Shown here one piece after another: positions 6,806-64,000 of a stretch of 64,000 bases of DNA. The notes below the pieces were generated by a model. It was not told the origin of the DNA. It saw only the letters and a list, made by a program, of their open reading frames with translations, and made no database searches. Numbering within the stretch: the first letter of the stretch is position 1; every line of letters begins with the position of its first letter. The stretch comes from Fibrobacterales bacterium. GTDB taxonomy: Bacteria > Fibrobacterota > Fibrobacteria > Fibrobacterales > JAOPTW01. The DNA lies in NCBI GenBank assembly GCA_051532035.1, contig JAOPTW010000011.1, positions 62,043-126,042 of the forward strand, in the 5' to 3' direction. Position numbers and translations under genes: made by a program.

Positions 6806-7078
6806 AGTGTGCTCTTGGTAAAAGGGCGGTGTTTTAGACAAGAATACTATGTTTTAGGGGCAGAGACCACTGTTTTGGTGAGGTTTTGTGTGGATTTAGA
6901 AGCTTTCCCATTCTGTAGTTGATACCTTTGATGTAGTTTTAGCTTTTTGGATGACATTTAGTTTGTAGCTAATAATGTCCACACAAAAAAAGTAGCTACA
7001 TACTCAAGAACTCTGTTTACACCCCTGTTTTCTATCTTTTTGGACCAATATATCCTATTTCCCTTAAAAAGAGGACAC

Positions 7079-35457: not shown

Positions 35458-35598
35458 CTAAGCCAACGTTTCCTTGTCGTTCTTATCCTCTTCACCCATC
35501 GCCTTCAACCTTTTCTTCTCCTTGTGGTAACACTCTCCCCAATACTCTTTATTAACCTCATCACCGTTTGCGCTCGTTCTACTGTTAATCTCGTACAT
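35458..35598 (-). pseudogene. 46-codon chimeric remnant combining a piece related to gene 41348..41851 with the tail of the 272-aa multi-copy family
   Basis: My translation: MYEINSRTSANGDEVNKEYWGECYHKEKKRLKAMGEEDKNDKETLA*. Nucleotides 35519-35570 are ~80% identical to 41431-41480 (GDEFSKEYWEECYHK). Nucleotides 35455-35515 are ~75% identical to the 3' ends at 54658 and 58202 (..KKKRLKA.G..GK.RLA*). Confidence 0.5.
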
Positions 35599-37593: not shown

Positions 37594-39558
37594 CTATGTG
37601 TTTTCACCGGATATTGAATCGGCAATGTTGGTTATGTGCTGGTTAATATGTTGAAATGACTGTGATATATTTTCCATGTATGAATTCATTTCATCGGTTG
37701 ACACAGATTGTTCGGTAACAGCAGTGGCGATAATACTTTGATACTCCTGCAGTTTAGTAAGAACATTGGTTATTTCAGCAAGAGTTGTAACGGTGTGTGT
37801 AACATTAGATTTCATCTCTTCAACGTGTTCTTTTATTTCATCTGTAGCACCTGCAGTTCGCTTTGCCAGCTCTTTAACTTCACTAGCAACAACAGCAAAA
37901 CCTTTTCCGGATTCGCCTGCAGAAGCAGCTTCAATTGTAGCATTCAACGCTAATAGAGAGAGCATATCGGCAGTATCGGTAATCATGTTGACTATTTTTG
38001 AAATTTTATCACCGGAGGTTTCCAGGTTTTTAATAACATGAGTAGAGCTTGCTGCAAGTTCAGCTCCGCTATCAGATAAATTTTTGGATTCGAGTGTGTT
38101 TTGTGAAATCTCCGAAATTGTCTGTGATAACTCTTCCATGCTTGCTTTCACCGTTGCTACAGTAGAATTTACCGTATCTGAGGATTCCTTGATCTCAGAA
38201 ATCGCCGATGTTTCAAGTGAGCGCGAATTTATTTCGTCCATAAGTATATGAGACTCTTTAAGCATATGGTGATGGCAATTTTCTGGCTTATTTAAACCGT
38301 TGTGAATAGCTGTTGCCATATCTTCGCATTTACCATAACCGCAGGCGTTGCAGTTAAACATATCTGCTTCGGTCTCTTTACCCATTGATAGATAAATGTT
38401 TTGAACGTCTTGTGTATTGGGAGTTTGAATAGTATTATTTGAACTTTTATCGGTATACGTTCTACTGTAGAGCCCTGGCTTCCAGTGACTGTTAACGAGC
38501 TTCTCAAGTTCTTTCTGGGTTTTTAACTCCCCTTTACGGCCACTTTTTTTGTACAGCGCCTGCATCTCTTGGTTTCTTTTCTCAACAAAATATTCAATAT
38601 CATCAGGAGATTTGTGTGAATTTCCCGTTCCCGGCCCGCCATTACAACCAAGGTCACAATTTAGGCAATCTATTAATACCGGCTGTCTTCCTTTATTAAT
38701 TACATCATCAAGCTTTTCAAGATATTCATAAATTACTTCTGGGCCCTCTATTTTCCTCGTGATCTGATCGATATCTCTGTTCCATCTTTGCGCTGTTCTC
38801 AACAATCCCCCAGGGGTAGAAAATAGAACCCCTCTCTCTGCAGGAGGATTTGAGTAATCCTCTTTTGGAAAGCGGTTTATATTAATGTTATTCTCTTGGA
38901 GGTGCTCTTTAAATGCCTTCATAGTAACATTGAAGTCACCAATAGTGTCATCAAACTCACGTTTTTTAGCAACACACGGTGAAACAATAAGAACTTTATG
39001 GTATTTGTATTCCGGATAATACTCTTTAAGAAGTTTTACTGTGTGGAGCATTGGGCTGTCGGCTGGTGCAAGATGATCAATAAGTTCAGGATGATAAATT
39101 TCAATAAAGGAGACGAGCGAGGGGCAGGGCTGCGAGATTACTGTTTCTGGACTATTTTTTTCAACATGATCCAGGTAAGATTTTATAGTGAGTTCTGCCC
39201 CAAAACTAACATCAAAAAAACCATCAACGCCAAGAGACTTTAAATACCCGTTAAATTCCAGATAAGCATCGGGAAAAACAGCGGCAATAGCAGGAGCAAC
39301 AATGGCAACAATTTTATCACCCTTTTTTACTGCTTGCTGAAAAGAGTCCATGTCATCAACTCCAACCCTGGCTTCATGGGTGCAATGCTTCAAGCACTGA
39401 CCGCAACCCAAACACATATTATCATTTAACTGTACAGTGTCACCAGATCCGTCATTACAATATTTTACCGGGCACACAGCGATACACGTGTGACAATTAT
39501 TACATTTTTCATCAATGACAGAAATGACTTTTGCTAAGTTGTGCATACAATACCCCAT
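37594..39558 (-). CDS. Soluble chemoreceptor with 2x[4Fe-4S] ferredoxin, [FeFe]-hydrogenase-like domain and MCP signalling domain
   Basis: CNNCHTCIAVCP and CLGCGQCLKHC clusters. H-cluster-like motifs ISQPCPS, VSPCVAKKRE, IDCLNCDLGCNGGPG. C-terminal MCP hairpin [38 protein letters not shown]. No TM helix. AAGAGG RBS upstream of 39558. Confidence 0.85.
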   Translation of the reverse strand: MGYCMHNLAKVISVIDEKCNNCHTCIAVCPVKYCNDGSGDTVQLNDNMCLGCGQCLKHCTHEARVGVDDMDSFQQAVKKGDKIVAIVAPAIAAVFPDAYLEFNGYLKSLGVDGFFDVSFGAELTIKSYLDHVEKNSPETVISQPCPSLVSFIEIYHPELIDHLAPADSPMLHTVKLLKEYYPEYKYHKVLIVSPCVAKKREFDDTIGDFNVTMKAFKEHLQENNININRFPKEDYSNPPAERGVLFSTPGGLLRTAQRWNRDIDQITRKIEGPEVIYEYLEKLDDVINKGRQPVLIDCLNCDLGCNGGPGTGNSHKSPDDIEYFVEKRNQEMQALYKKSGRKGELKTQKELEKLVNSHWKPGLYSRTYTDKSSNNTIQTPNTQDVQNIYLSMGKETEADMFNCNACGYGKCEDMATAIHNGLNKPENCHHHMLKESHILMDEINSRSLETSAISEIKESSDTVNSTVATVKASMEELSQTISEISQNTLESKNLSDSGAELAASSTHVIKNLETSGDKISKIVNMITDTADMLSLLALNATIEAASAGESGKGFAVVASEVKELAKRTAGATDEIKEHVEEMKSNVTHTVTTLAEITNVLTKLQEYQSIIATAVTEQSVSTDEMNSYMENISQSFQHINQHITNIADSISGENT

Positions 39559-40491: not shown

Positions 40492-41288
40492 TGAAATTAG
40501 TATTCACAAGTGTGCTTTGCTTTTGTTTGACGGGGGTACCGGTTCTAGGGAGTGATTTATTAGATTCGTTTACGTTACGCGAATGTAGGTACAATATGTC
40601 AATAGGGGGGCATGGTTATATATCCAATGTTCCTACTCATACAAAAACAGACCCTGTTATCAATACGCTATCAGGTGGTATCTATTTTAGCCCAATATCC
40701 GTGAGTCTAATCTGGCAATCAAGTTTGGGAGTGACGGGATCAATATCAGCAATCAGAGAATCATCATTTTACAGTGCTCCTAATCTAGATACTGTAAACG
40801 CTAAAGAATACCCAGAGTTTTACAGTAGTGGATCTTTCTTGAGAGATCAAACAACCAAAAAAGGCTTTTCCCCTTCATTCCTTGTAATGGCTGGCCCATT
40901 ATATAAGCACACGTATTCAGATACAAAGACGTCTGTTACAGGATCTATCCAAATTGGGCTGCATACAATAGACATACGAGATACAGAATTTTATTTGAAA
41001 GAGAAAAACACTCATACTATTGTACACCACTCTTACACAAAAGAGGACTCAGAGGTATCATATCTACTCCTTGCTGACCTACTCTATGGTATTGAATGGA
41101 AAAAGAATATCGAATTCACCTTAGGGTGCTCATATAGTGTCACCTTTTTGGATCTCACTATTCTTGATACAGAACGTAATTTAGTTACCGAAACAAATAC
41201 TGTTACACGCTATCACTATGATAAACCAATACATTCACTTATTCTAAAAGTGGGAATGTCTATAGAGATCGCGCACCTATTACCCTAG
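40488..41288 (+). CDS. Secreted protein, possibly an outer-membrane beta-barrel
   Basis: Signal peptide. Alternating-hydrophobicity strands throughout. ATGA overlap with 39847..40491. Its 3' end is duplicated at 46187-46273. Confidence 0.6.
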   Translation: MMKLVFTSVLCFCLTGVPVLGSDLLDSFTLRECRYNMSIGGHGYISNVPTHTKTDPVINTLSGGIYFSPISVSLIWQSSLGVTGSISAIRESSFYSAPNLDTVNAKEYPEFYSSGSFLRDQTTKKGFSPSFLVMAGPLYKHTYSDTKTSVTGSIQIGLHTIDIRDTEFYLKEKNTHTIVHHSYTKEDSEVSYLLLADLLYGIEWKKNIEFTLGCSYSVTFLDLTILDTERNLVTETNTVTRYHYDKPIHSLILKVGMSIEIAHLLP

Positions 41289-41347
41289 CTAATGATATTT
41301 GTTTTTCTTTTATGTCGGCTGGGCGTTACTCAGTCTGAGGTTGTTCA

Positions 41348-41851
41348 TCACGGTATTTCGGGTGGCAAAAAGGCATCGGGAAAACGTGTCCCATACTTTT
41401 CCATAAACTTTTCTTGATCTACTTTGTGATAACACTCTTCCCAATACTCTTTACTGAACTCATCACCGCAGTGTTTGGCCAGGTTGAGTTCTGCAAAAGC
41501 TTTAAAGTAGTCTTTCATCTTCATTAACACTCTAATATGTACTGTGTTCAATTGGCTTTCGATATTGAGATCTGCATTTTCACCATCATTAAAGGTAAAC
41601 ATAAGAGCGGTAGAGCAGCAGTCTTTTGCGTCGTCATATTTTTTGAGTTGTTCAAAGCAGAGTGCCTGGTGAAGGAGTACTTCAGCTCTCATATCTCGTG
41701 AAAGATCATCGAGGAACTGGATTCTATTAAAATCTTCTCCAGCTTTTTCATATTCACATAAAATTTCTGAAATGCAGGCTCGTTGAAAGAGAAGGTCTGC
41801 GATGCCGATAGTGTCTAAATCTAGATGAGGAAAAATTGTACTGTAATCCAC
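41348..41851 (-). CDS. Cytoplasmic helical-repeat (TPR-like) protein
   Basis: 167 aa, all-helical, with TPR-like Ala/Tyr spacing (LHQALCFEQLKKYDDAKDCCSTAL). A fragment related to its 3' end occurs at 35519-35570. Confidence 0.55.
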   Translation of the reverse strand: MDYSTIFPHLDLDTIGIADLLFQRACISEILCEYEKAGEDFNRIQFLDDLSRDMRAEVLLHQALCFEQLKKYDDAKDCCSTALMFTFNDGENADLNIESQLNTVHIRVLMKMKDYFKAFAELNLAKHCGDEFSKEYWEECYHKVDQEKFMEKYGTRFPDAFLPPEIP

Positions 41852-43227: not shown

Positions 43228-43320
43228 AATACCTAATGTATCCTTCTAACACAATGTGGGCTCAATTGTGGGCAAGGGAATGGGCAAGGGAATGGGCAAG
43301 GGTATTGGTTGGGAGACTCC
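43228..43320. repeat. Junction motif R1, copy a (AATACCTAATGTnTnnTTCTAACACAATGTrrG plus ~60 nt shared with copy c)
   Basis: Matches 53381-53470 over ~90 nt and 47176-47215 over ~35 nt. Confidence 0.85.
43270..43305. repeat. 12-nt microsatellite (GGGCAAGGGAAT)x3
   Basis: gggcaagggaat gggcaagggaat gggcaagggtat. The homologous copy at 53427-53438 has a single unit. Confidence 0.9.
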
Positions 43321-44841: not shown

Positions 44842-45141
44842 TTACAGCGCCCTACGCAACTCAGTCATTTGGTCCACTACCTCCTTGCCATCTGTACCCT
44901 CAACCCCCACCGCCTTCAACCTCTTCTTCTTTAAATACTGCAGCCTCGCATACTGGCTATTAAACTCCTTGCGTACTTCTGGGGAGTCTTGAAAGGCTCC
45001 ATCTATCCAGTTTCTAATCTCTCGTTCAGTTGTTCGTAGGAGTGAAATACACTGGTCGCGGATGGTTTTGTAATCAGTTGCTAGTGGGAACGCTCTCCCG
45101 AGTAAGGCAAGTTCTACGATATTTTTCAGCACACCGTCCAT
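44842..45141 (-). pseudogene. Truncated, internally deleted copy of the 272-275-aa multi-copy gene family
   Basis: MDGVLKNIVELALLGRAFPL|ATDYKTIRDQCISLLR..IRNWIDGAFQDSPEVRKEFNSQYARLQYLKKKRLKA matches aa ~152-172 and ~205-262 of 54658..55485. It lacks the N-terminal 150 aa and the central block. Confidence 0.75.
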
Positions 45142-45234
45142 AGTTTTTGGTCGTGCTAGAATTTGTTATAGGTAGCATTAAGGGGACTAATATTTTAGAT
45201 TTAGTAAAGACGTCATTTAACTTGCTCAAAAGTC

Positions 45235-46145: not shown

Positions 46146-46186
46146 TTTAGTTGAATAGGGGCCATAGGTAATGTGGTATTACTATA

Positions 46187-46273
46187 ATAAACCAACGCAT
46201 TCTCTCATTCTCAAAGTGGGAATGTCTATCGAGATAGCACACTTGTTACGCTAGCTAAAGATATTTGTTTTTC
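46187..46273 (+). pseudogene. 3'-terminal remnant of a paralog of gene 40488..41288
   Basis: 87 nt, ~85% identical to 41221-41307. That region covers the last ~22 codons, the stop and 20 nt downstream (..aagtgggaatgtctat.gagat.gc.cac.t.ttac.ctagctaa.gatatttgtttttc). Confidence 0.8.
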
Positions 46274-46435
46274 ATATATATATGAAAACGTCGCTATATA
46301 GAATGTCTCAAGCGGCATTGTATAATGATTCACCAACAGGAGGCGGAGGCTATTTGTAGTCATGTATATTGGGGATGTATATTTTCTGTTCAGGTTTCTA
46401 TTATTAAGTAATTGGTACTATTAATGGTTTATTAC

Positions 46436-47197
46436 ATGAGATTTCTATTCCTATTAGCGTTATTTATGACTCAGTGTAGTACAATGCTATTGAGTAAACT
46501 TCCTACTACTGAGATTAAGTATAAAGAGTCCTATCTCAGTGGTACTATTGCAGGCATTCCTCCTTCATTTGATGTTGAAGTGTTATTAGATCATCATAAA
46601 AGTAATGGAGAAATAGTAGCAGACTCATTTCTAATCATGAGTTCTGATGTGAATTCACAAGAATTTTTACTCATACTTGAGCCTGGGAAGTGGGAAATTA
46701 TCAGTTTCAGGTTTATAAAAATGAAAGAGTTTCCTGAGCATGCACCTGAATCGAGTGGTCCTTACTTTATCATGGACTGTACTCTTATGGATAGGCCCAA
46801 TATTACTCTAGAGATTGAAGAGGACGCTATTAATGACTTAGGAGCGTTACAATTTGTTGGGTTACCTGATTTGGAAGTATTGGCAGCAAAGGATATTGAG
46901 GGGTTTCTTTCACAAGACACATTTCCACGGCAATATACTGAGCGTAGAGCAGCCTTTTCAATAGAGTTTACCTCATTCACAGATTTAGAGATGCAGTACG
47001 AGATTGAGTATGCCCAAAAGTTTGAGATGAAGTTAAATCCTCTCACAGCAAAAGCAAATTTTGAGACTAACGTTAAGTATTTTGGCATTCAGATGTGGGA
47101 TCCTTCTCAAATTGTAGAACAGGGAGGTGGCCGTTTTAACCATGATCCATTTAATATGACTAATCCTTCTCCATCAATACCTAATGTCTCATTCTAA
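46436..47197 (+). CDS. Lipoprotein, function unknown; its 3' end runs into junction motif R1
   Basis: The track start 46412 is TTG. ATG 46436 gives MRFLFLLALFMTQCS (lipobox). The last 8 codons are encoded by R1 copy b (47176-47215). Confidence 0.6.
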   Translation: MRFLFLLALFMTQCSTMLLSKLPTTEIKYKESYLSGTIAGIPPSFDVEVLLDHHKSNGEIVADSFLIMSSDVNSQEFLLILEPGKWEIISFRFIKMKEFPEHAPESSGPYFIMDCTLMDRPNITLEIEEDAINDLGALQFVGLPDLEVLAAKDIEGFLSQDTFPRQYTERRAAFSIEFTSFTDLEMQYEIEYAQKFEMKLNPLTAKANFETNVKYFGIQMWDPSQIVEQGGGRFNHDPFNMTNPSPSIPNVSF

Positions 47198-47337
47198 CAC
47201 AATGTGAGTTCTATAATTCCCATAATGAAGGGGGTTGCCTCCTACTGATACACAAGTGTTACTGGGCTTAAGAGCAGGCAACGATTTTTTCTAGAAATGA
47301 AGAAGAAAATCGCTCCGTACAATTCGCCAAATGCTTC

Positions 47338-53068: not shown

Positions 53069-53090
53069 TATCTTTTATAGTGCCCGACGT

Positions 53091-53382
53091 AACCTCTCCT
53101 TCCCATCCTTACCTTCAACTCCCTGCGCCTTCAACCTCTTCTTCTTTAAATACTGCAGCCTCGCATACGGGCTATTAAACTCCTTGCGTACTTCGGGGGA
53201 GTCTTGAAAGGCTCCATCTATCCAGTTTCTAATCTCAACTTCAGATTGTCTGAGGAGTGAAATACACTGGTCGCGGATGGTTTTGTAATCAGTTGCTTGG
53301 AACCTCTCTGCATGGGCGAGGACTTTGAGTTCACGGAGTTCTGTTACGAGGGCGTCAGCTTCATCCCAGAGGTGAGTATCAA
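53091..53382 (-). pseudogene. 5'-truncated copy (about the C-terminal 95 codons) of the 272-275-aa multi-copy family; normal stop lost
   Basis: The minus-strand translation ..DTHLWDEADALVTELRELKVLAHAERFQATDYKTIRDQCISLLRQSEVEIRNWIDGAFQDSPEVRKEFNSPYARLQYLKKKRLKAQGVEGKDGK.. is collinear with 54658..55485. Homology stops at gtatcaa|tacctaatgt, exactly where R1 copy c begins. Confidence 0.8.
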
Positions 53383-53470
53383 TACCTAATGTATTCTTCT
53401 AACACAATGTAGGCTCAATTGTGGATATAGGAAAGGGCAAGGGTATTTGTTTGGAGATCGAATAGTGTTT
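53381..53470. repeat. Junction motif R1, copy c
   Basis: aatacctaatgtattcttctaacacaatgtaggctcaattgtgg... matches 43228-43320. Confidence 0.85.
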
Positions 53471-54657: not shown

Positions 54658-55485
54658 CTAAGCCAACCTCTCCTTCCCATCCTTACCCTCAACACCCTGT
54701 GCCTTCAACCGTTTCTTTTTCAAATACTGCTGCCTTGCATACTGGCTATTAAACTCCTTGCGTACTTCGGGGGAGTCTTGAAAGGCTACATCTATCCAGT
54801 TTCTAATCTTAACTTCAGTTGCTCTGAGGAGTGAAATACACTGGTCGCGGATGGTTTTGAAATCAGTTGCTTGGAACCTCTCTGCATGGGCGAGGACTTT
54901 GAGTTCACGGAGTTCTGTTGCGAGGACGTCAGCTTCATCCCAGAGGTGCGTATCAAAAATGACGGGGGAGTTGTCGAGGGGGAGTGCTCTGCCGAGTAAG
55001 GCGAGTTCTACGATATCTTTCAGCACACCGTCCATAGCTTTTGATTTATTAAAAGAGATGATCCGTTTAATATGGCGTGGTTCTTTCATGCACACCAGTT
55101 TTAATATTTTAACCATCTTAGAACGCAGCTCCTTGGCTTCAGGGGCGCGCTGTGTCCAGAGGTCGCGGTCGGTGGTTTCGGTACGTAACTTTTGCTTAAA
55201 GAGTATGTCGGCATGCTGTGCGGCCCGAGACTGCATGATTGCTTTATGCGCGGTCTCTTTGCTAAACCCAAAGGTCTTGAGTGCTTTTAAGTGATTGAGT
55301 GCAGTCTTACCCAGTTCCTCTACTTCAAAGAGGTACGTATCGATACGCATTGAGGGAATGTGGAGTGCATTGGTCGGTTGCGCAGTGATCTCGTCGATAA
55401 TAAGGTCATAACACGCCTCAGGTTGGTCGGGAACCTCAGAGCTGGGCCTGGTATAGGGGCTTTTGCTATCGTTTTTGCTACTCAT
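54658..55485 (-). CDS. Uncharacterised 275-aa helical cytoplasmic protein, multi-copy family, full copy 1
   Basis: GAGGGAG RBS 5 nt upstream of the ATG. aa 1-157 differ at one residue from copy 2 (58202..59020). A central block is divergent and the C-terminal block is conserved. I recognise no catalytic or DNA-binding motif. Confidence 0.8.
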   Translation of the reverse strand: MSSKNDSKSPYTRPSSEVPDQPEACYDLIIDEITAQPTNALHIPSMRIDTYLFEVEELGKTALNHLKALKTFGFSKETAHKAIMQSRAAQHADILFKQKLRTETTDRDLWTQRAPEAKELRSKMVKILKLVCMKEPRHIKRIISFNKSKAMDGVLKDIVELALLGRALPLDNSPVIFDTHLWDEADVLATELRELKVLAHAERFQATDFKTIRDQCISLLRATEVKIRNWIDVAFQDSPEVRKEFNSQYARQQYLKKKRLKAQGVEGKDGKERLA

Positions 55486-55684
55486 GGTGTCTCCCTCGGG
55501 TTAATTCCTACCCATATGTTACTCAATGCTATCCATATTTGGTTGATTCAATATGTCCTTTCGGGAGTGTTCAAAATTCTGTGTAACTAGCGATAATACG
55601 TTGCAGTAAATTAAAACATAATTTTTGTCACAATTTCCCCATTGGATTCGTCTAATATGGTCAGATAATAAGTTTGAATTTTAA

Positions 55685-58133: not shown

Positions 58134-58201
58134 TCCTGTGGTGATACTCTATAGGGACTGGAAAGAATAGTATAGAGTGAATTCCTCGTGTTGACGTCCT
58201 C

Positions 58202-59020
58202 CTAAGCCAACCTCTCCTTCCCATCAACACCCACCGTCTTCAACCGTTTCTTTTTCAAATACTGCTGTCTCGCATACGGGCTATTAAACTCCTTGCGTAC
58301 TTCTGGGGAGTCTTGAAAGGCTACATCTATCCAATTTCTAATCTCGACTTCAGTTGCTCTGAGGAGTGAAATACACTGGTCGCGGATGGTTTTGTAATTC
58401 GTTGCACGGGACCGCTCTACTATAGCGAGCTTTTTGAGATCACGGAGTTCCGTTATGAGGGCGTCTGCTTCATCCCAGATGTGAGTATCAAAAATGACGG
58501 GGGAGTCTTCGAGGGGGAGTGCCCTGCCGAATAGAGCAAGGTCGGTGAGGTCTTTTAACACACCGTCCATCGCTTTTGATTTATTAAAAGAGATGATCCT
58601 TTTAATATGGCGTGGTTCTTTCATGCACACCAGTTTTAAAATTTTAACCATCTTAGAACGCAGTTCTTTTGCTTCAGGGGCGCGCTGTGTCCAGAGGTCA
58701 CGGTCGGTGGTTTCGGTGCGTAACTTTTGCTTAAAGAGTATGTCGGCGTGCTGTGCGGCCCGAGACTGCATGATTGCTTTATGCGCGGTCTCTTTGCTAA
58801 ACCCAAATGTCTTGAGTGCTTTTAAGTGATTGAGTGCAGTCTTACCCAGTTCTTCTACTTCAAAGAGGTACGTATCGATACGCATAGAGGGAATGTGGAG
58901 TGCATTGGTCGGTTGCGCAGTAATCTCGTCGATAATAAGGTCATAACACGCCTCAGGTTGGTCGGGAACCTTAGAGCTGGGCCTGGTATAGGGGCTTTTG
59001 CTATCGTTCTTGCTACTCAT
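58202..59020 (-). CDS. Uncharacterised 272-aa helical cytoplasmic protein, multi-copy family, full copy 2
   Basis: Same RBS and 5' region as copy 1. Mosaic identity pattern relative to copy 1. Lies immediately downstream of the left 21-bp repeat array. Confidence 0.8.
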   Translation of the reverse strand: MSSKNDSKSPYTRPSSKVPDQPEACYDLIIDEITAQPTNALHIPSMRIDTYLFEVEELGKTALNHLKALKTFGFSKETAHKAIMQSRAAQHADILFKQKLRTETTDRDLWTQRAPEAKELRSKMVKILKLVCMKEPRHIKRIISFNKSKAMDGVLKDLTDLALFGRALPLEDSPVIFDTHIWDEADALITELRDLKKLAIVERSRATNYKTIRDQCISLLRATEVEIRNWIDVAFQDSPEVRKEFNSPYARQQYLKKKRLKTVGVDGKERLA

Positions 59021-59029
59021 GGTGTCTCC

Positions 59030-59262
59030 CTCGGGTTAATTCCTATCCATATGCAACGGTTTGCTATAGATATTGGGTGGTTTGCTGTCCATATGTATGC
59101 TGATGCTATCCATATTGGGCAATTTCCTATCCATATGTTGTCGAATGCTATTGGTATGTGCAGGTTTGCTCTACCTATGCAAGCGGATGCTCTCCATATG
59201 TTGTAATTTCCTATCCATAGGTCACTCGATGCTATCCATATTGGGTTGATTCAGTATATCCT
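59030..59262 (-). repeat. Left array: ~11 tandem degenerate 21-bp units (consensus on + strand nnTGCTATCCATATGnnnnnn)
   Basis: The core CCATAT or a one-mismatch variant starts at 59047, 59068, 59089, 59110, 59131, 59152, 59173, 59194, 59215, 59236 and ~59257, an exact 21-bp phase. The copy-1 locus (55505-55560) has only 2-3 units. Confidence 0.9.
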
Positions 59263-59547
59263 TTCTTACCAGTATTGAGTAATTAAATATCTGTTTTTAC
59301 TAAAGATTTATGGATATTCAATGATTGTAAGTCATGCTATCTTAGCTATATCCAAATCTTTATTAAACTATTACCTGTATTCTATAATTCATTGCCAATA
59401 CTCAAAGGTATCAAATATTAAGTATTACTGTCTTATGATTCATATATCATGGTTTAATATAGAGCAACACTATTTAGAATTTTTCTGAGCTAGGCATTTA
59501 GATACTCAGTCCTTACAGTCAACTCATTATCCCTAGGAAAGCTTTAC
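59263..59547. other. AT-rich ORF-free spacer between the two inverted 21-bp arrays
   Basis: About 285 bp, visibly AT-rich, with no ORF of 60 aa or more on either strand. Confidence 0.7.
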
Positions 59548-59885
59548 TCAGATCTGTGACTCCATATGGCAGTAATTCAGGTCGAGTGTGTAGTAAAGCG
59601 TACGCAGATGGTAGGTAATTCGTGAGATATGGGTAGTATTTACTCAGATATTGGTTGTAATTGCCTCAATATGGACGGTATTCTATGAAATATGAGGGTA
59701 AATGAGCACAATAGGGTAGGGATTATACCGGAGATCGTATTGCGGAGACTGTATATGGTATGTAATGACCTGAATAGGGCATGCATTCTATTGAGTATGG
59801 GTGTAAATGAGGTCATTAGCGTCGTAATTGAACTGAATATCGGAGTAAATCACCCAGATTGACACTCAAATGTGTAGAATCTAGG
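59548..59885 (+). repeat. Right array: ~14-16 tandem degenerate 21-bp units in inverted orientation (consensus GTAAWTnnnnnnn(G)AATATGG)
   Basis: The core ATATGG or a variant starts at 59564 (inside the palindrome CCATATGG), 59585, 59606, 59627, 59648, 59669, 59690, 59711, 59732, 59753, 59774, 59795, 59816, 59837, 59858 and 59879, an exact 21-bp phase. AATATGGAyrGyA is the reverse complement of the left-array core. Confidence 0.9.
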
Positions 59886-59934
59886 GGTGGTTTGGAGCAG
59901 GGTGGTGTGTATGGGTGCGTATTAACGGTTCGAG

Positions 59935-60075
59935 GGGGAGTGGATGTTGTCTCTTGTGAATGATGTTGGTTTTTCCGTTGTAATTTGAGGGGGAATTTTT
60001 AGGTTTATGGTGTAAATTTACCTGCTGAGTGATAAGGGTTGTATTGGCTTGCGCATAATTACAACTGAAGTACAC
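59935..60075 (+). repeat. Repeat A, copy 1 (upstream leader shared with 62262-62400)
   Basis: Shared blocks: tctcttgtga.tgat, ttggttt...cgttgtaatt.a..gg.ga, ttacctgctg.gt.at.ag. Confidence 0.7.
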
Positions 60076-60092
60076 CAAAGAAATATTGTAAA

Positions 60093-60503
60093 ATGATGCA
60101 CTTAATATTGACTACTGCTCTAGGATTAATCTGCATATTGACGGGATTAATTAGCTTGAGAAAATACGATAGATTGAATAAAACATCATTCAAGTTTGGC
60201 GTTGCATATATTGTATTTACAGCTATTTTTAATTTCACAATTATATGGCTAGATTCTCAAGGACCCGACAATGGTATAATCATTTCCATGATGGTTTATA
60301 GTATAATAAATTTTCCATTCTCAATAATTGCCTATGCTAATTCGCCCTTAATATGGATGATTTTAATTTACTCTGGTTTAATTGGGACTATCGAATTTGT
60401 CTTGATAGGAAAATTAATAAATAACTTCACTTCAAGAAATGATGATGACGGAAACAGCAAGATAACATCTATATGTCCCCCCAAGTCAAGTGGAAAGCAT
60501 TGA
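60093..60503 (+). CDS. Small membrane protein (cassette gene 1)
   Basis: 136 aa with 4 hydrophobic helices. The last ~13 codons and the stop lie inside conserved module CR1. Confidence 0.6.
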   Translation: MMHLILTTALGLICILTGLISLRKYDRLNKTSFKFGVAYIVFTAIFNFTIIWLDSQGPDNGIIISMMVYSIINFPFSIIAYANSPLIWMILIYSGLIGTIEFVLIGKLINNFTSRNDDDGNSKITSICPPKSSGKH

Positions 60504-60768
60504 TTCCCCTCAAATAGTTTTACTTGACTTCTCACTCCTGAATCTCTTATACGACTCTATGGAAGAGTGAAATGACTTACCAGCGGATATAAGTCATATA
60601 CTCAATAATGTGTATTGTAAGGGAGGCGCTGTAATGCCTCTCTATGGTAGTATCTTTTGAGAATGGCGATAGTTTAATCAGAATGAGCAATCAGAGCTAG
60701 GGAAGGGTACAGCTTCAGTGGGAATTAGCTAGATTATTTGTTATAAATCAACTCTCTGTACAATAAGA
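60464..60768 (+). repeat. Conserved inter-cassette module CR, copy 1 (~305 bp)
   Basis: Left core AACATCTATATGTCCCCCC. IR aagtcaagt(31 nt)acttgactt at 60483-60530. Hairpin atgactta/taagtcat. Hairpin gggaggc..gcctc at 60621-60642. Block 60667-60737 is identical in CR3 and CR4. Right end ctgtaNrATAAGA. Confidence 0.9.
60738..60764 (+). promoter_or_regulatory. Sigma-70-like promoter candidate at the right end of CR1 (TTGTTA-15 nt-TACAAT), facing gene 60783
   Basis: The equivalent positions are TTGTTA-15-TAGAAT in CR3 (63020-63046) and GTGTTA-15-TATGAT in CR4 (63764-63790). All three -10 boxes keep TAnnAT despite substitutions. The spacer is short at 15 nt. Confidence 0.3.
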
Positions 60769-60782
60769 TTTAACTGCGACCT

Positions 60783-61166
60783 ATGATTAAATATTTACTC
60801 ACTTTGCTTTTGACTTGCTCAATTTTTAGCTGTGTCTCCACAGATTCTGAATCCTCTTGTTCTGTGGGAACGCCACTTACGCCTCAATTACAAATAAATA
60901 ACAACATTGACTTACGCCTTTCGGTTATATACGAAAAAATTATGTCCTTCCCAGTGCACTCACTAGATTCTCTAGTTACACTCAGTAGCTTGCCTAGAGA
61001 AGACTCTTTCAAAATATATTTGATTAACCTGTCATCAGAAACCACATCTAAAGATTCAGTCTCTTTTTCAACAATGAGTCATAACAGCTATTATCTAAAT
61101 ATTGATGAAGGGCCGAATAATTCGCTAGAATTTGACATTACCTATAAAGACAAATATTGCGAATAA
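60783..61166 (+). CDS. Small lipoprotein (cassette gene 2)
   Basis: Lipobox LLTCSIFSCVS. 127 aa. Followed at 61190-61208 by a vestigial CR left core (aacatctatagctcccccc). Confidence 0.6.
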   Translation: MIKYLLTLLLTCSIFSCVSTDSESSCSVGTPLTPQLQINNNIDLRLSVIYEKIMSFPVHSLDSLVTLSSLPREDSFKIYLINLSSETTSKDSVSFSTMSHNSYYLNIDEGPNNSLEFDITYKDKYCE

Positions 61167-61549
61167 CTTATTTGCAAAGTGTAGCAGTTAACATCTATAG
61201 CTCCCCCCGTTTATAATCGAGGGGGTTATACAGGTGATTTAAATTTCTTTAGTGCCCCAGTTTAATAATGAGAGTGCTCTATTGTAGATGTATGTTGTGG
61301 GGTACTCTTACCCCATTATTGAGATGTTTAGAGGTAGGGGAGTTTAAAAAAAATGTTCTTATACATCTTATTCAAAAATCATGTAACCTTTTCCAATAAT
61401 AGCGGCGTCAAATCCTTAGAGACAAAAAAAGAATATTTTGCATCTTGGTATTTACTATGAACTTTTACGCGGCTGAGACAAATCCTGACTTAGATTTGGA
61501 TTATTCTACAGCCTCGTATCCCCTCTAGACTAATTCATCATGAGGAAAC

Positions 61550-62062
61550 ATGAAATCCTTCGCAATTATAATCATCCTTCTTTGTTCGAGTCTGTATTCT
61601 AAATCGACCTATCATATGTTTGCTGTTCGCCCCCTAACTATAGGCGATCCTGATGCTAGCCATTTGCTTCCCACTAGAATTGTCTCGTATTATTGTCAGT
61701 ATAAATCACTGGTCTTTGCAATTGAGCCAATCTACATCTTTGATGGGGAATTTGGAAATGCAGGATACGGAGGCTCAACATCAATCATGTTTTTTGAAAA
61801 CGACAGAACTATATTTGCTCCAGGAGCAACTGTCTCTATTCTTAATCCCACTAATGGAAGTATTACACCGGAAATATTTTTTAGACTTCAATTGTTGAAT
61901 TCAAGGAACAAATGGTACTTGTTTGGCATGGAGGCATTGTTAGGGTATGGTCTAAAAAGAATGAATACAACCGCACTTATTCATGATACCGAAGCACAAA
62001 CATCAAGTGGCTTTACGTTTAGATTAGGCTTCGAAATTGGCTTTAAGTACAAACATAGATAA
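61550..62062 (+). CDS. Small secreted beta-barrel-like protein (cassette gene 3)
   Basis: Signal peptide. Alternating strands. Followed 32 nt later by the partial module CR2. Confidence 0.6.
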   Translation: MKSFAIIIILLCSSLYSKSTYHMFAVRPLTIGDPDASHLLPTRIVSYYCQYKSLVFAIEPIYIFDGEFGNAGYGGSTSIMFFENDRTIFAPGATVSILNPTNGSITPEIFFRLQLLNSRNKWYLFGMEALLGYGLKRMNTTALIHDTEAQTSSGFTFRLGFEIGFKYKHR

Positions 62063-62093
62063 AAGAAGAACAAAAATTAACTACAGAGGTGAT

Positions 62094-62176
62094 ACCATCT
62101 ATTTGCCCCCCAAGTCACGTAAAGAATCTTGATTCACCTCAAATTGTTTTACTTGGCTTCTCACTCCTGAATCTCA
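62094..62176 (+). repeat. CR copy 2 (left ~85 bp only), joined to repeat A copy 2
   Basis: accatctatttgccccccaagtcacgtaaagaatcttgattcacctcaaattgttttacttggcttctcactcctgaatctc, after which homology to CR1 ends. Confidence 0.85.
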
Positions 62177-62261
62177 CACTGCTCCCTGCATCGGTAACCT
62201 ATTCTCATATGGCTCTGCTTTCTGTATCAATTGAATGGGCGGTCCGGCATCTTACTGAGGA

Positions 62262-62400
62262 TGGGGAGTTGGGTGGTTTCTCTTGTGATTGATTGTGTAT
62301 TTGTAAGTGAATAGGGGGTGATATTTGGTTTGACGTTGTAATTGAATGGAGGATTAGTAGATTTATTGCATAGACTTACCTGCTGTGTAATCAGAGATAT
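62262..62400 (+). repeat. Repeat A, copy 2
   Basis: See 59935-60075. It lies directly upstream of gene 62406. Confidence 0.7.
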
Positions 62401-62405
62401 TTGGA

Positions 62406-62723
62406 ATGCTTCGACGACCAAAAGAAACTCAATTAGAAAAAGCCGACTTGTTTCCTGTAATAAGGTTTAATTACTTTCCTCTAGTTTTTGCATCAATATT
62501 ACTGCCAATTTTAAGTTTGGGATTTATCAACGTTAGTTATGGTAATAGAAGTAACCTTGATTTAAAGGTATACAGAAAAGTCGTTCGTCAAAAGTATGAA
62601 GTAGAAGAAAGAGGTTTTTACTATTTTAAAGACGGAAAACTAATTCTGCGCCCATTCTTTGGAACAATTGTAGGTGTATTTCTTTTCATAGCTTCGTTTG
62701 GTGTTATGACTTCGATACTATAA
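62406..62723 (+). CDS. Small membrane protein (cassette gene 4)
   Basis: 105 aa with two hydrophobic helices. Unrelated to the other cassette ORFs. Confidence 0.55.
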   Translation: MLRRPKETQLEKADLFPVIRFNYFPLVFASILLPILSLGFINVSYGNRSNLDLKVYRKVVRQKYEVEERGFYYFKDGKLILRPFFGTIVGVFLFIASFGVMTSIL

Positions 62724-62747
62724 GTATTTAGCGCCTAATCGACATAT

Positions 62748-63050
62748 ACCATCTATATACCCCCCCAAGCCAAGTAAAGAATCTTGATTCCCCTCAATTG
62801 TATTACTTGACTTCTCACTGCTGAATCTCTTATATGACTCTATAGTGGAGTGAAATGACTTAACAGCGGATACGCGTCATATACTCAATAATGTGTATTA
62901 TAAGGTGGTGCTATAATACCTCTCTATGGTAGTATCTTTTGAGAATGACGATAGTTTAATCAGAATGAGCAATCAGAGCTAGGGAAGGGTACAGCTTCAG
63001 TGGGAATTAGCTAGATTATTTGTTAGAAATCAACCCTCTGTAGAATAAGA
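62748..63050 (+). repeat. CR copy 3 (full length)
   Basis: Collinear with CR1. The hairpin at 62902-62924 carries a compensatory C-G to T-A change. Confidence 0.9.
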
Positions 63051-63165
63051 GCTAGCCTGCATCTACACCTAATTAATCATTAATTATAAAAAGTTTGAAC
63101 TTTCATTCACATTTTAATATTACCCATCGTCTAAAGATGTATAACATTCAAAAATCAGGAAAAAT

Positions 63166-63504
63166 ATGAAATTATTTACTAAAACAATCATAGGCTTAAC
63201 CTTAATTTGTGCTGTTTTCACTTCAAATACTTATGCAGGAAACACAAGTGGGCAAAAAGTATCAATTAACGAAATCAATTTTAATTCCGGAAGCATTTAT
63301 TTCCAATTAAGCTCTGAAATGTTTGATTGTAAAAATGGTACACACTTAAAACTTAATGAAAATTCAAATAAAGATTTATATGCAGCATTATTAAATACAT
63401 ATGCAACGAATGGAAAACTTATAATTGAATGGGTACATTGCTATGATGGAAGTGTCGGAGACCTAAATTCAGGAACTGGTGTAAAAATTCGATTCAGCAA
63501 GTAA
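63166..63504 (+). CDS. Small secreted protein (cassette gene 5)
   Basis: Signal peptide MKLFTKTIIGLTLICAVFTSNTYA. RBS AGGAAA. 112 aa. Confidence 0.65.
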   Translation: MKLFTKTIIGLTLICAVFTSNTYAGNTSGQKVSINEINFNSGSIYFQLSSEMFDCKNGTHLKLNENSNKDLYAALLNTYATNGKLIIEWVHCYDGSVGDLNSGTGVKIRFSK

Positions 63505-63530
63505 ACCTTGCACCTTACAACAGCAGGCTT

Positions 63531-63794
63531 ACGTCTATATGCCCTCCAAGTCAAGTAAAAAATATTGATTCATCTCAACTGTTTTACCTGACTTCTCACT
63601 TATGAATCTCTTATACGAGTCATATACTCAATAATGTGTATTGTAAGGGAGGCGCTATAGTGCCTCCCTTAGGTGTTATCTTTTGAGAATGGTGATAGTT
63701 TAATCAGAATGAGCAATCAGAGCTAGGGAAGGGTACAGCTTCAGTGGGAATTAGCTAGATTATGTGTTAGAAATCAACCGTCTGTATGATAAGA
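63531..63794 (+). repeat. CR copy 4 (full length apart from a 38-nt internal deletion)
   Basis: Collinear with CR1. It lacks ctctatgg...gatataa, the left arm of the second hairpin. Hairpin gggaggc/gcctccc at 63647-63668 is perfect. Confidence 0.9.
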
Positions 63795-63846
63795 GTTATA
63801 TGGCTTTTGATTACATATTATTTCTGCTCACCAAATAGGATTTGTA

Positions 63847-64000
63847 ATGTCTCCCACTAATAAACTTGGCACACCAAAAGATTTAGATAGTATCACATTA
63901 AACGATGTGCTTGAAAATAAGGTTTGGGTTTGGACCTGGGAAGTAAACCTTGACGAAGAATATGATGAATCCTGGCAGTTGCCTATAATTGGACTTGATG
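63847..64000 (+). CDS. Hypothetical protein, N-terminal 51 codons only (cassette gene 6, runs off the window)
   Basis: Not in the track. ATG 63847 followed by an open frame to the window end (MSPTNKLGTPKDLDSITLNDVLENKVWVWTWEVNLDEEYDESWQLPIIGLD). No signal peptide. Confidence 0.45.
   Translation, partial: MSPTNKLGTPKDLDSITLNDVLENKVWVWTWEVNLDEEYDESWQLPIIGLD

Follow-up and report, generated by a model that had tools for sequence, protein, structure and literature searches.

How do genes that show no similarity to one another come to stand in a row, all in one orientation, with the same non-coding sequence between them? The question is raised by positions 59881-64000 of a 64,000-nucleotide (nt) stretch of Fibrobacterales DNA (contig JAOPTW010000011.1, positions 62,043 to 126,042), which at its full length is called the window here. 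An earlier note on this DNA had described a cassette-like array of small genes, each followed by a core site and a conserved module of about 305 bp, had likened it to an integron cassette array, and had named as a lesser alternative an intergenic element made of a terminator and a promoter. Our analyses show that the array is real and far beyond chance, and that the lesser alternative describes its anatomy better, because the gene-end module (T) and the upstream module (U) of the repeat are separable, U is promoter-like and ends at about +1, a terminator-like hairpin precedes that end, and no recombinase is seen in 60 kb upstream or near the sister locus. We propose that these are independently transcribed small genes with standard terminator-promoter spacers, turning over at module boundaries, and we put the probability of this reading at about one half.

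Six unrelated genes and a shared core

The array holds six genes on the + strand, the last of them cut by the end of the window.

60093 to 60503, + strand: c1, 136 aa, several hydrophobic segments; the open reading frame (ORF) passes through the core into CR1, the first copy of the conserved repeat (CR).
60783 to 61166, + strand: c2, 127 aa, lipoprotein-type N-terminus (..IFSC); singleton protein cluster.
61550 to 62062, + strand: c3, 170 aa, signal-like N-terminus; OCD01_04180.
62406 to 62723, + strand: c4, 105 aa, two hydrophobic segments; OCD01_04185.
63166 to 63504, + strand: c5, 112 aa, signal peptide-like N-terminus, GC 29.5%; OCD01_04190.
63847 to 64000, + strand: c6, start of a 138-aa protein without signal peptide; OCD01_04195.

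These ORFs are unrelated and lie on one strand, as had been claimed: pairwise BLASTP between c1 and c6 gave no match below E = 0.03. The membrane, lipobox or signal features previously ascribed to five of them are also seen, with hydrophobic segments or signal-like N-termini in c1-c5. Their GC content (29.5-37.4%) compares with 39.7% for the window and 47.4% for H272, the conserved gene transcribed divergently at the head of the array. No protein of the array has a match in Pfam, NCBIfam or PADLOC, and all form singleton clusters save c6, which clusters with a protein of a sister metagenome-assembled genome (MAG) (OCD01_04195 + OCC49_17585). The 5΄ leader of c1 is similar to that of c6, to a degree reached by 3 of 5000 shuffles. 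In the NCBI annotation c3-c6 (OCD01_04180 to OCD01_04195) are hypothetical proteins and c1 and c2 are uncalled; both are clear ORFs, yet the locus tags jump from OCD01_04175 to OCD01_04180 (c3).

What the genes have in common lies behind them. The core CATCTATAnnCCCCCC, searched with up to 2 mismatches, has five matches in the 64-kb window (60466, 61192, 62096, 62750 and 63532), all on the + strand, where 0.32 would be expected and five were reached in 0 of 100 shuffles; the rest of the 64 kb, outside 60466-63547, holds no match. A core is found after all five complete genes, at core-to-core spacings of 726, 904, 654 and 782, in agreement with the earlier note. Only its statement that every core follows the stop has to be amended: this is right for the other complete ORFs, but the stop of c1 (60501-60503) falls inside CR1. 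We also rejected the idea that the core encodes a conserved C-terminal peptide: only for c1 and c2 is it in frame with the ORF, and in the latter two stops precede it. The array runs on past 64000.

The conserved repeat is composite

Alignment recovers the CR copies first proposed at 60464-60768, 62748-63050 and 63531-63794 (the last with a 38-nt deletion), together with a partial copy from 62094, and the sharp boundaries described for them are indeed the same at every copy. The partial copy is really a distinct end-type variant of T that reaches to about 62215 and is shared, at 86% identity, with L004, one of two loci of the sister genome (L003 and L004) presented below. The CRs of the first inventory are real, and profile searches add the U-type modules P1 and P2, which it had missed. 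The non-coding features of the array are as follows.

59932 to 60042, + strand: P1, U-type module before c1, ending in CTGAGTGATAAGG; nhmmer match to the U profile, E 1e-21; it lies within the block 58195-60050 that matches L003 at 89%.
60452 to 60553, + strand: T module of CR1, with the core at 60464-60481, hairpin 1 at 60483-60530, then CTCACTCCTGAATCTC; profile E 8e-30; hairpin z -2.5, stem kept in 5 copies.
60613 to 60773, + strand: U module of CR1, with hairpin 3 and its T-rich tail at 60613-60660, the identical block, TTTGTT-16-TACAAT and AAGA; profile E 2e-34.
61186 to 61230, + strand: site behind c2 with the core alone, AACATCTATAGCTCCCCCC, and then a C6/G5 hairpin of its own in place of CR.
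61350 to 61435, + strand: X module, TTCAAA-18-AATAAT, promoter-like; 81% identical to L003 6236-6150.
62083 to 62215, + strand: CR2a, end-type T module with core, hairpin 1 and ~40 nt of non-CR sequence; profile E 1e-27; 86% identical to L004 1059-942.
62261 to 62400, + strand: P2, U-type module before c4; profile E 2e-24.
62748 to 63050, + strand: CR3, full T-M-U spacer (alignment and profile).
63531 to 63794, + strand: CR4, T-U spacer; the 38-nt deletion removes hairpin 2 (alignment and profile).

CR is composite, with two separable modules rather than one indivisible site. The T module (~95 nt) consists of the core, a 12-13-bp AT-rich hairpin 1 (loop ~25 nt) and CTCACTCCTGAATCTC, and its copies are 74-84% identical. 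It sets in 24-32 nt past the stops of c2-c5, overlaps the end of c1, and in the sister genome starts 10 nt past the stop of a 544-aa gene. M, an optional middle piece with hairpin 2, is deleted in CR4. The U module (~185 nt, copies 90-92% identical) opens with hairpin 3, which is GC-rich with a T-rich tail (z -2.4), is the sole terminator-like site reported by the scan, and in the alignment shows one compensatory C-G to T-A change between copies. An 88-nt block of U is 100% identical in CR1, CR3 and CR4. The end of U reads TTTGTW, 16 nt, TAnnAT, AAGAG, and homology ends there in every copy; c2 and c4 start only 11-14 nt past it.

In the window and the two sister loci, profile searches find five copies of T and six of U. 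The two modules occur together in CR1, CR3 and CR4, T occurs alone in CR2a and L004, and U occurs alone in P1, P2 and the P module of L003. P1 and P2 are diverged homologues of the 3΄ half of CR, and both end in the CTGnnnnATAAGAG motif. Five of the six genes have a U-type module upstream, c3 being preceded instead by the different promoter-like module X; the c2-c3 spacer has the core only, then X, and the T hairpin follows four of the five complete genes. A run begins with a gene that has U alone before it and closes with one that has T alone after it, while the spacers within the run are T-M-U. Two such runs seem to be joined in the window, P1-c1-CR1-c2-X-c3-T and then P2-c4-CR3-c5-CR4-c6.

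Two other views of CR were rejected. It is not decayed coding sequence, since stops occur in all six frames of all three copies. Nor is it a structured RNA: folding of the whole element is no better than that of shuffled sequences (z +0.2 and -0.8), the 88-nt block is unstructured on both strands, and hairpin 1 is almost without covariation.

The end of U resembles a promoter

When the ends of U are aligned, the hexamers at the -10-like position read TACAAT, TAGAAT, TATGAT, TATAAT and TGTAAT, at a 16-nt spacing from TTTGTW, and in all seven copies homology stops 5-7 nt past the hexamer. The promoter/leader part is also unusually unstructured (60690-60790 in CR1, z +2.3). These observations suggest that U is a promoter module whose homology ends at about the transcription start, and the sharp end at ATAAGA would be explained by its being the edge of the promoter. 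The promoter and terminator functions are thus assigned from consensus-like motifs, from hairpins and from the point where homology ends, and should be read as putative; we found no literature on Fibrobacter promoters or cassette arrays. The 88-nt block is probably a protein-binding region, through which the genes may be co-regulated.

A match to the final 55 nt of U (nhmmer E 3e-4) was found in L002, a locus of another MAG from this project, which encodes an H272 homologue of only 27% identity. In L002 this motif is placed between the 42-bp iterons of that homologue and a single divergent gene for a 158-aa secreted protein; its hexamer at the aligned -10 is a perfect TATAAT, with TTTGTA 16 nt upstream.

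A sister locus places a probable exchange at the end of U

A profile-based scan of 185,579 species-representative genomes returned two loci, L003 and L004, both in the Fibrobacterales MAG tPB_Fibr1, the sister genome, whose name appears in a study on cellulose paperboard degradation in the deep sea (PMC11980830). Their comparison with the window calls for the features that lie at the head of the array.

58202 to 59020, - strand: H272, the divergent conserved gene, 272 aa, all-helical, family of unknown function; OCD01_04175 of a Fibrobacterales MAG at NCBI, hypothetical.
59035 to 59245, + strand: iteron array A, ten phased 21-bp repeats with consensus ..TTGCTATCCATATG.., directly upstream of H272 and conserved unit by unit in L003.
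59560 to 59875, + strand: iteron array B, about 14-15 weaker phased 21-bp repeats ..ATATGGGTAGTAAT.., inverted relative to array A.

L003 runs collinear, at 89% identity, with the stretch that takes in H272, the two iteron arrays and P (window 58195-60050), and passes straight from P into the equivalent of window 63771-64000 (c6 leader and ORF; L003 8842-8613) at 96% identity. The 3.7-kb c1-c5 block with all CRs is absent from L003, in which neither core nor CR is found; this difference in gene content, with P against c6 and no c1-c5, favours the earlier interpretation. In a three-way alignment, P->c6 in L003 and CR4->c6 in the window switch inside a ~20-nt motif common to P and CR, ACCnTCTGTnTGATAAGAGTT, and a ~19-nt sequence, GATAAGRGTTRTATGGCTT, stands at both ends of the 3.7-kb block. 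These alignments show that the same gene may sit behind P or behind CR, and they place the apparent exchange at the end of U rather than in the core. The breakpoint had been predicted at the ATCTATA-C6 core; the L003 comparison puts the switch at the 3΄ end of CR, in the U-end motif. Since the leaders of c1 and c6 are homologous, the history must be more complicated than one clean insertion.

Elsewhere in L003 module X precedes a 52-aa lipoprotein gene, and in L004 T with the ~40-nt variant follows the 544-aa gene and abuts an H272 pseudogene at the latter's 3΄ end. The exact CR 62-mer is absent from the 185,579 species-representative genomes, the U 25-mer from metagenome and viral contigs and a degenerate T 25-mer from metagenome contigs; CR1 has no match among plasmids. 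With the exception of the 55 nt in L002, T and U profiles detect no copy in window positions 1-59900 or in L001, L002, L005, L006 and L007.

This distribution bears on the view that CR, or T and U apart, is a non-autonomous mobile repeat inserted between ordinary genes, whose promoter and terminator arose by chance or co-option. Miniature inverted-repeat transposable elements (MITEs) and repetitive extragenic palindromes (REPs) have terminal inverted repeats, target-site duplications and dispersed copies in both orientations. The precise ends of CR and its non-coding, hairpin-rich sequence would suit a MITE, a REP or a Correia-type element, as would the one T copy on the other contig of the sister genome, beside the unrelated 544-aa gene. 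However, on inspection we saw neither terminal inverted repeats nor target-site duplications, all T copies have the same orientation immediately after stops, and copies are wanting in the other 60 kb of the window, in the loci listed above and in the genome and contig collections. Such a repeat would moreover leave unexplained that the sister genome lacks the c1-c5 genes as well as the repeats. We consider this explanation very improbable.

Proposed turnover at module boundaries and the case for a site-specific system

We propose that each small gene is framed by standard non-coding modules and would be transcribed by itself. T would serve as the gene-end module, with its core and AT-rich hairpin after the stop, and U as the upstream module, with its terminator-like hairpin, its 88-nt block and a promoter. 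The U-type module of the first gene (P1, P2) would derive from the promoter beside the H272/iteron control region. Gene content would be altered by recombination at module boundaries, of which one exchange, P->c6 against CR4->c6, is visible. Homologous recombination between CRs could duplicate or delete units, for which the identical 88-nt block would be ample.

Several observations weigh against this proposal. The -35 is poor by sigma-70 standards, the P-type copies carry G where A(-11) is expected, and hairpin 1 has no U-tract. The junction with T falls at one and the same nucleotide for at least six unrelated genes, and so does the junction with U for seven unrelated leaders; homologous recombination alone would be unable to make such new junctions, so that a precise joining process is still needed. 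P and CR4 have no long identical stretch at the L003 switch point, which is awkward for a RecA-dependent exchange. Turnover is supported by a single comparison, as only two genomes carry the modules, and because beyond the H272-P block the flanks of L003 are unlike the window, the loci compared may be paralogous and not orthologous.

The need for precise joining brings forward a site-specific cassette system, integron-like but differently built. A cassette would comprise 5΄ leader, ORF and CR and would bring the promoter of the next gene; the 3΄ end of P would be an attI-like entry site, crossover would take place in the shared AMCnTCTRT...ATAAGAG motif, and the recombinase would be encoded elsewhere, beyond 64000 or in trans like the host Xer on pdif. 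An involvement of H272 and the iterons is less likely. Such a system would account for the sharp recurrent boundaries at both ends of every CR, T and U copy beside unrelated sequence, for the compact units, in which c2 and c4 begin so close to the U end and CR takes in the stop of c1, as happens in integron cassettes, for the placing of the L003 switch inside the ~20-nt motif and the flanking of the 3.7-kb block by GATAAGRGTTRTATGGCTT, and for cassettes of 30-37% GC in a genome of 40% with H272 at 47%. Core and U end also share a direct repeat, AMCnTCTRTA, with 12 matches in the window against 2.4 expected, and a position weight matrix (PWM) of the core scores U ends above 19,995 of 20,000 random site sets; the support from the shared motif is modest, as this is a post hoc statistic on copies that are not independent.

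On the other side, the domain scan (~40 larger ORFs of >=120 aa across the 64 kb) found no integrase, recombinase or transposase domain, the 60 kb upstream of the array included, and no recombinase lies within ~10 kb on either side of L003; the earlier statement that neither IntI nor any other recombinase is visible is upheld over this range. No recombinase fold is seen in H272. T and U each occur without the other, and the final gene of a run has T only, which is unexpected for an indivisible att site; the homology of P with CR extends over 140 nt, which an attI/attC pair does not need; U is present at the single-gene locus in L002; and, since homology between the leaders of c1 and c6 extends right to the start codon, the boundaries do not all fall at the same place. 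A site-specific system is a serious rival, though on the unlikely side. Its fullest form we regard as doubtful: an undescribed cassette-capture system of the Fibrobacterota, in which leader-ORF-CR units of ~650-900 bp are inserted at the P 3΄ end beside H272 and the iterons by an unlinked recombinase, or one of unknown type, cutting AMCnTCTRT...ATAAGAG. If it were true, each cassette would carry its own terminator and the promoter of the next gene, a self-expressing analogue of the integron.

H272 and its iterons

The H272 family comprises at least 180 representative sequence clusters. The alignment-based AlphaFold2 (AF2) model (predicted local distance difference test score 94) has long helices only. 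It has no match at E<=0.001 among PDB or viral-model folds, H272 has none in Pfam, PHROG or PADLOC, and tblastn against plasmids and phages gave none. With a confident all-helical model and no matching PDB or viral fold or domain, the idea that H272 is a recombinase or a plasmid Rep was rejected.

Arrays A and B are separated by an AT-rich stretch of ~300 bp, and in a PWM scan for array B its own units hold most of the top ranks in the window and in L003. Upstream of their H272 homologues, L002 and L005 have their own, different 42-bp iterons. In the loci compared (window 58202-59880, L003 8990-9830, L002 7775-7883 and L005 1791-2094) the family regularly shows upstream phased 21- or 42-bp iterons that vary by lineage, then a long non-coding region and a divergent gene for a secreted protein. 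The protein of this family probably binds the iterons. By analogy, iterons flanking an AT-rich stretch look like the layout of an origin or a centromere, yet this one is chromosomal and multi-copy. The combination of H272 with phased iterons is a recurrent uncharacterised module that is worth study by itself.

We found no array-B iterons within the 88-nt block of U by PWM scan. The idea that the core is an isolated H272 iteron is weakly supported, as the iteron PWM ranks the cores 184th to 3740th of 128,000 positions.

Further copies of H272, all on the - strand, are present in the window: a full paralogue at 54658-55485 (91% amino acid identity, with two iterons at 55500-55562), 3΄ fragments at 53090-53383 and 44896-45153, and a 55-nt remnant at 35465-35519. 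In Aquimarina sp. SS2-1 (CP170199.1; L001 7081-8696) a distant relative of H272 stands divergently beside a TssD (Hcp) gene, the first in a row of uncharacterised genes, and is followed on its own side by conflict-system genes (Macro, SMEK_N/CTD10, DUF2326). In the 1.3-kb non-coding region upstream of the H272 homologue of L005, a GC-rich self-complementary stretch (~1290-1400, read on the - strand), gggccgtcgggccc ... gacccggtggcgggtcc, may be a structured RNA.

The surrounding island

The first 39 kb of the window carry ordinary chromosomal genes (chemoreceptors, a hybrid histidine kinase, glycoside hydrolases, an extracytoplasmic function sigma factor). From ~39.8 kb on there is an island of genes for small membrane proteins, lipoproteins and secreted proteins without database relatives, and full and truncated H272 copies are interspersed throughout it, from 39.8 to 64 kb.

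The island has a second case of one upstream module before unrelated ORFs. A module with the sequence ATCAATACCTAATGTATYCTTCTAACACAATGT... (66 nt, 88% identical) occurs at 43228-43293, 47176-47241 and 53381-53446, and is found upstream of the unrelated membrane-protein genes 43425 and 53507; an H272 fragment is abruptly cut off at the copy at 53381. Other dispersed direct repeats, 84-89% identical, pair 41211-41313 with 46177-46279 and 35522-35566 with 41424-41468, and one of them falls within the gene of a tetratricopeptide repeat protein (41348-41851).

Two genes outside the island may be mentioned. The 654-aa protein encoded at 37594-39558 (- strand) combines a methyl-accepting chemotaxis signalling domain with the large-subunit domain of iron-only hydrogenases and with Fe-S cluster motifs, and by its domains looks like a hydrogenase-like sensory chemoreceptor. 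At 7040-9718 (+ strand) lies the gene of an 892-aa protein with long collagen triple-helix repeats, whose DNA has a periodicity of 18 bp (repeat families at 7434-8719).

Comparison with known systems

attC sites are 55-141-bp imperfect palindromes bounded by RYYYAAC ... GTTRRRY, and a cluster of attC sites without integrase is called a CALIN. A regular-expression scan of both strands of 59881-64000 found one pair of RYYYAAC/GTTRRRY boxes (61773-61900), which lies inside c3, and none at the boundaries; together with the length of 305 bp this agrees with the previous opinion that CR is not an attC. Nevertheless, the array resembles the chromosomal integron arrays of Vibrio (with ~125-bp, ~90% identical Vibrio cholerae repeats as attC sites) and CALINs in its co-oriented, compact, unrelated and AT-rich single-gene units with a similar sharp-edged repeat, in the divergent conserved gene and special site at its head, and in a gene content that seems to vary between related genomes at the repeat boundary. 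It differs in having neither IntI nor R΄΄/R΄ boxes, in a repeat of 305 bp with two separable modules, in a spacer with a likely terminator and promoter, so that its genes are not promoterless, and in a head gene that encodes a helical protein of unknown function with 21-bp iterons. The integron-like reading of the earlier note thus keeps the unrelated ORFs, the sharp boundaries, the AT-richness and the change of content, and loses the breakpoint at the core and the indivisible site; nor is a recombinase seen in the DNA covered. None of the findings that it had named as fatal to it (CR copies scattered genome-wide in both orientations, one identical gene order in all related genomes, or ORFs that are diverged paralogues) was made.

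Other repeat-bounded systems are more remote. The Correia elements of Neisseria are repeats that give promoters and terminators to their neighbours; they have terminal inverted repeats and TA duplications, and are dispersed in hundreds of copies in both orientations. In the pdif modules of Acinetobacter plasmids, genes are flanked by 28-bp XerC/D sites of alternating orientation, and the modules are moved by a recombinase encoded elsewhere. In this general comparison the dispersal and inverted termini of the former and the alternating sites of the latter are unlike the array. The vsp/vlp loci of Mycoplasma consist of paralogous genes that share a conserved 5΄ region including leader and signal peptide; a phase-variable locus of this type was rejected, as the ORFs of the array are not paralogues and conservation stops upstream of the leaders. 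The DUF1874 motif lies in consecutive intergenic regions with one ORF between copies and without a 5΄ integrase, and its authors suspected an unusual attC (PMC5737381). The array is like it in having a conserved motif in successive intergenic regions without integrase, and differs in that CR is much longer and not globally structured (z ~0). Rfam, which includes the DUF1874 motif and group II intron domains, gave 0 matches at gathering thresholds over the 64 kb, and only two chance-level matches at E<=5 in 58900-64000.

The closest described system is rAID-1 of the Bacteroidales, in which co-oriented genes of ~100-300 codons with a GC content below 41% are joined by conserved intergenic motifs ʻreminiscent of integronsʼ, and whose definition requires, at the 5΄ end and co-directional with the array, a XerD-like recombinase with >=44% identity to BF9343_RS08045 (10.1101/471110; PMC12247911). 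The array shares with rAID-1 a host of the Fibrobacteres-Chlorobi-Bacteroidetes (FCB) group, short co-oriented low-GC genes and conserved intergenic sequence; the rAID-1 definition asks for at least two co-directional short genes with GC <=41%, and here there are six ORFs of 105-170 aa and GC 0.295-0.374. At the 5΄ end, in contrast, there is no XerD-like recombinase: the 5΄ gene is H272, all-helical and without recombinase fold or domain. The rAID intergenic motif has been published as a figure only, and how the array is built is unsolved in rAID too.

By analogy with rAID-1, the array might be an island of orphan immunity or defence genes, a function that would be compatible with any of the mechanisms considered here. 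Its co-oriented, short (105-170 codons), low-GC genes with conserved intergenic sequence present three of the four defining rAID features (10.1101/471110; PMC12247911), its proteins are predicted to be periplasmic or in the membrane, and the Aquimarina relative of H272 adjoins a TssD (Hcp) gene. However, unlike rAID-1, the array encodes proteins without recognisable immunity domains (none belongs to a Pfam, NCBIfam or PADLOC family), the window has no tyrosine recombinase, and no effector or type VI secretion system gene was seen in it. We regard an immunity function as improbable.

Unrelated genes split by one conserved repeat are the signature of gene-collecting systems such as integrons and rAID, and even in these the origin of the cassettes is unsolved. 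Here the signature appears in a phylum without a described example and with no linked recombinase, in spacers that are unusually informative, as terminator, promoter and both boundaries can be read in them. If the turnover were site-specific, a new mechanism of gene capture would be involved; if not, portable promoter and terminator modules would let the bacterium plug foreign genes for small secreted proteins into a common framework of expression and regulation. The array is cassette-like, neither an integron nor any other catalogued element, and is best described as a new variant within the theme of gene arrays with conserved intergenic repeats, one whose spacers are readable as terminator plus promoter.

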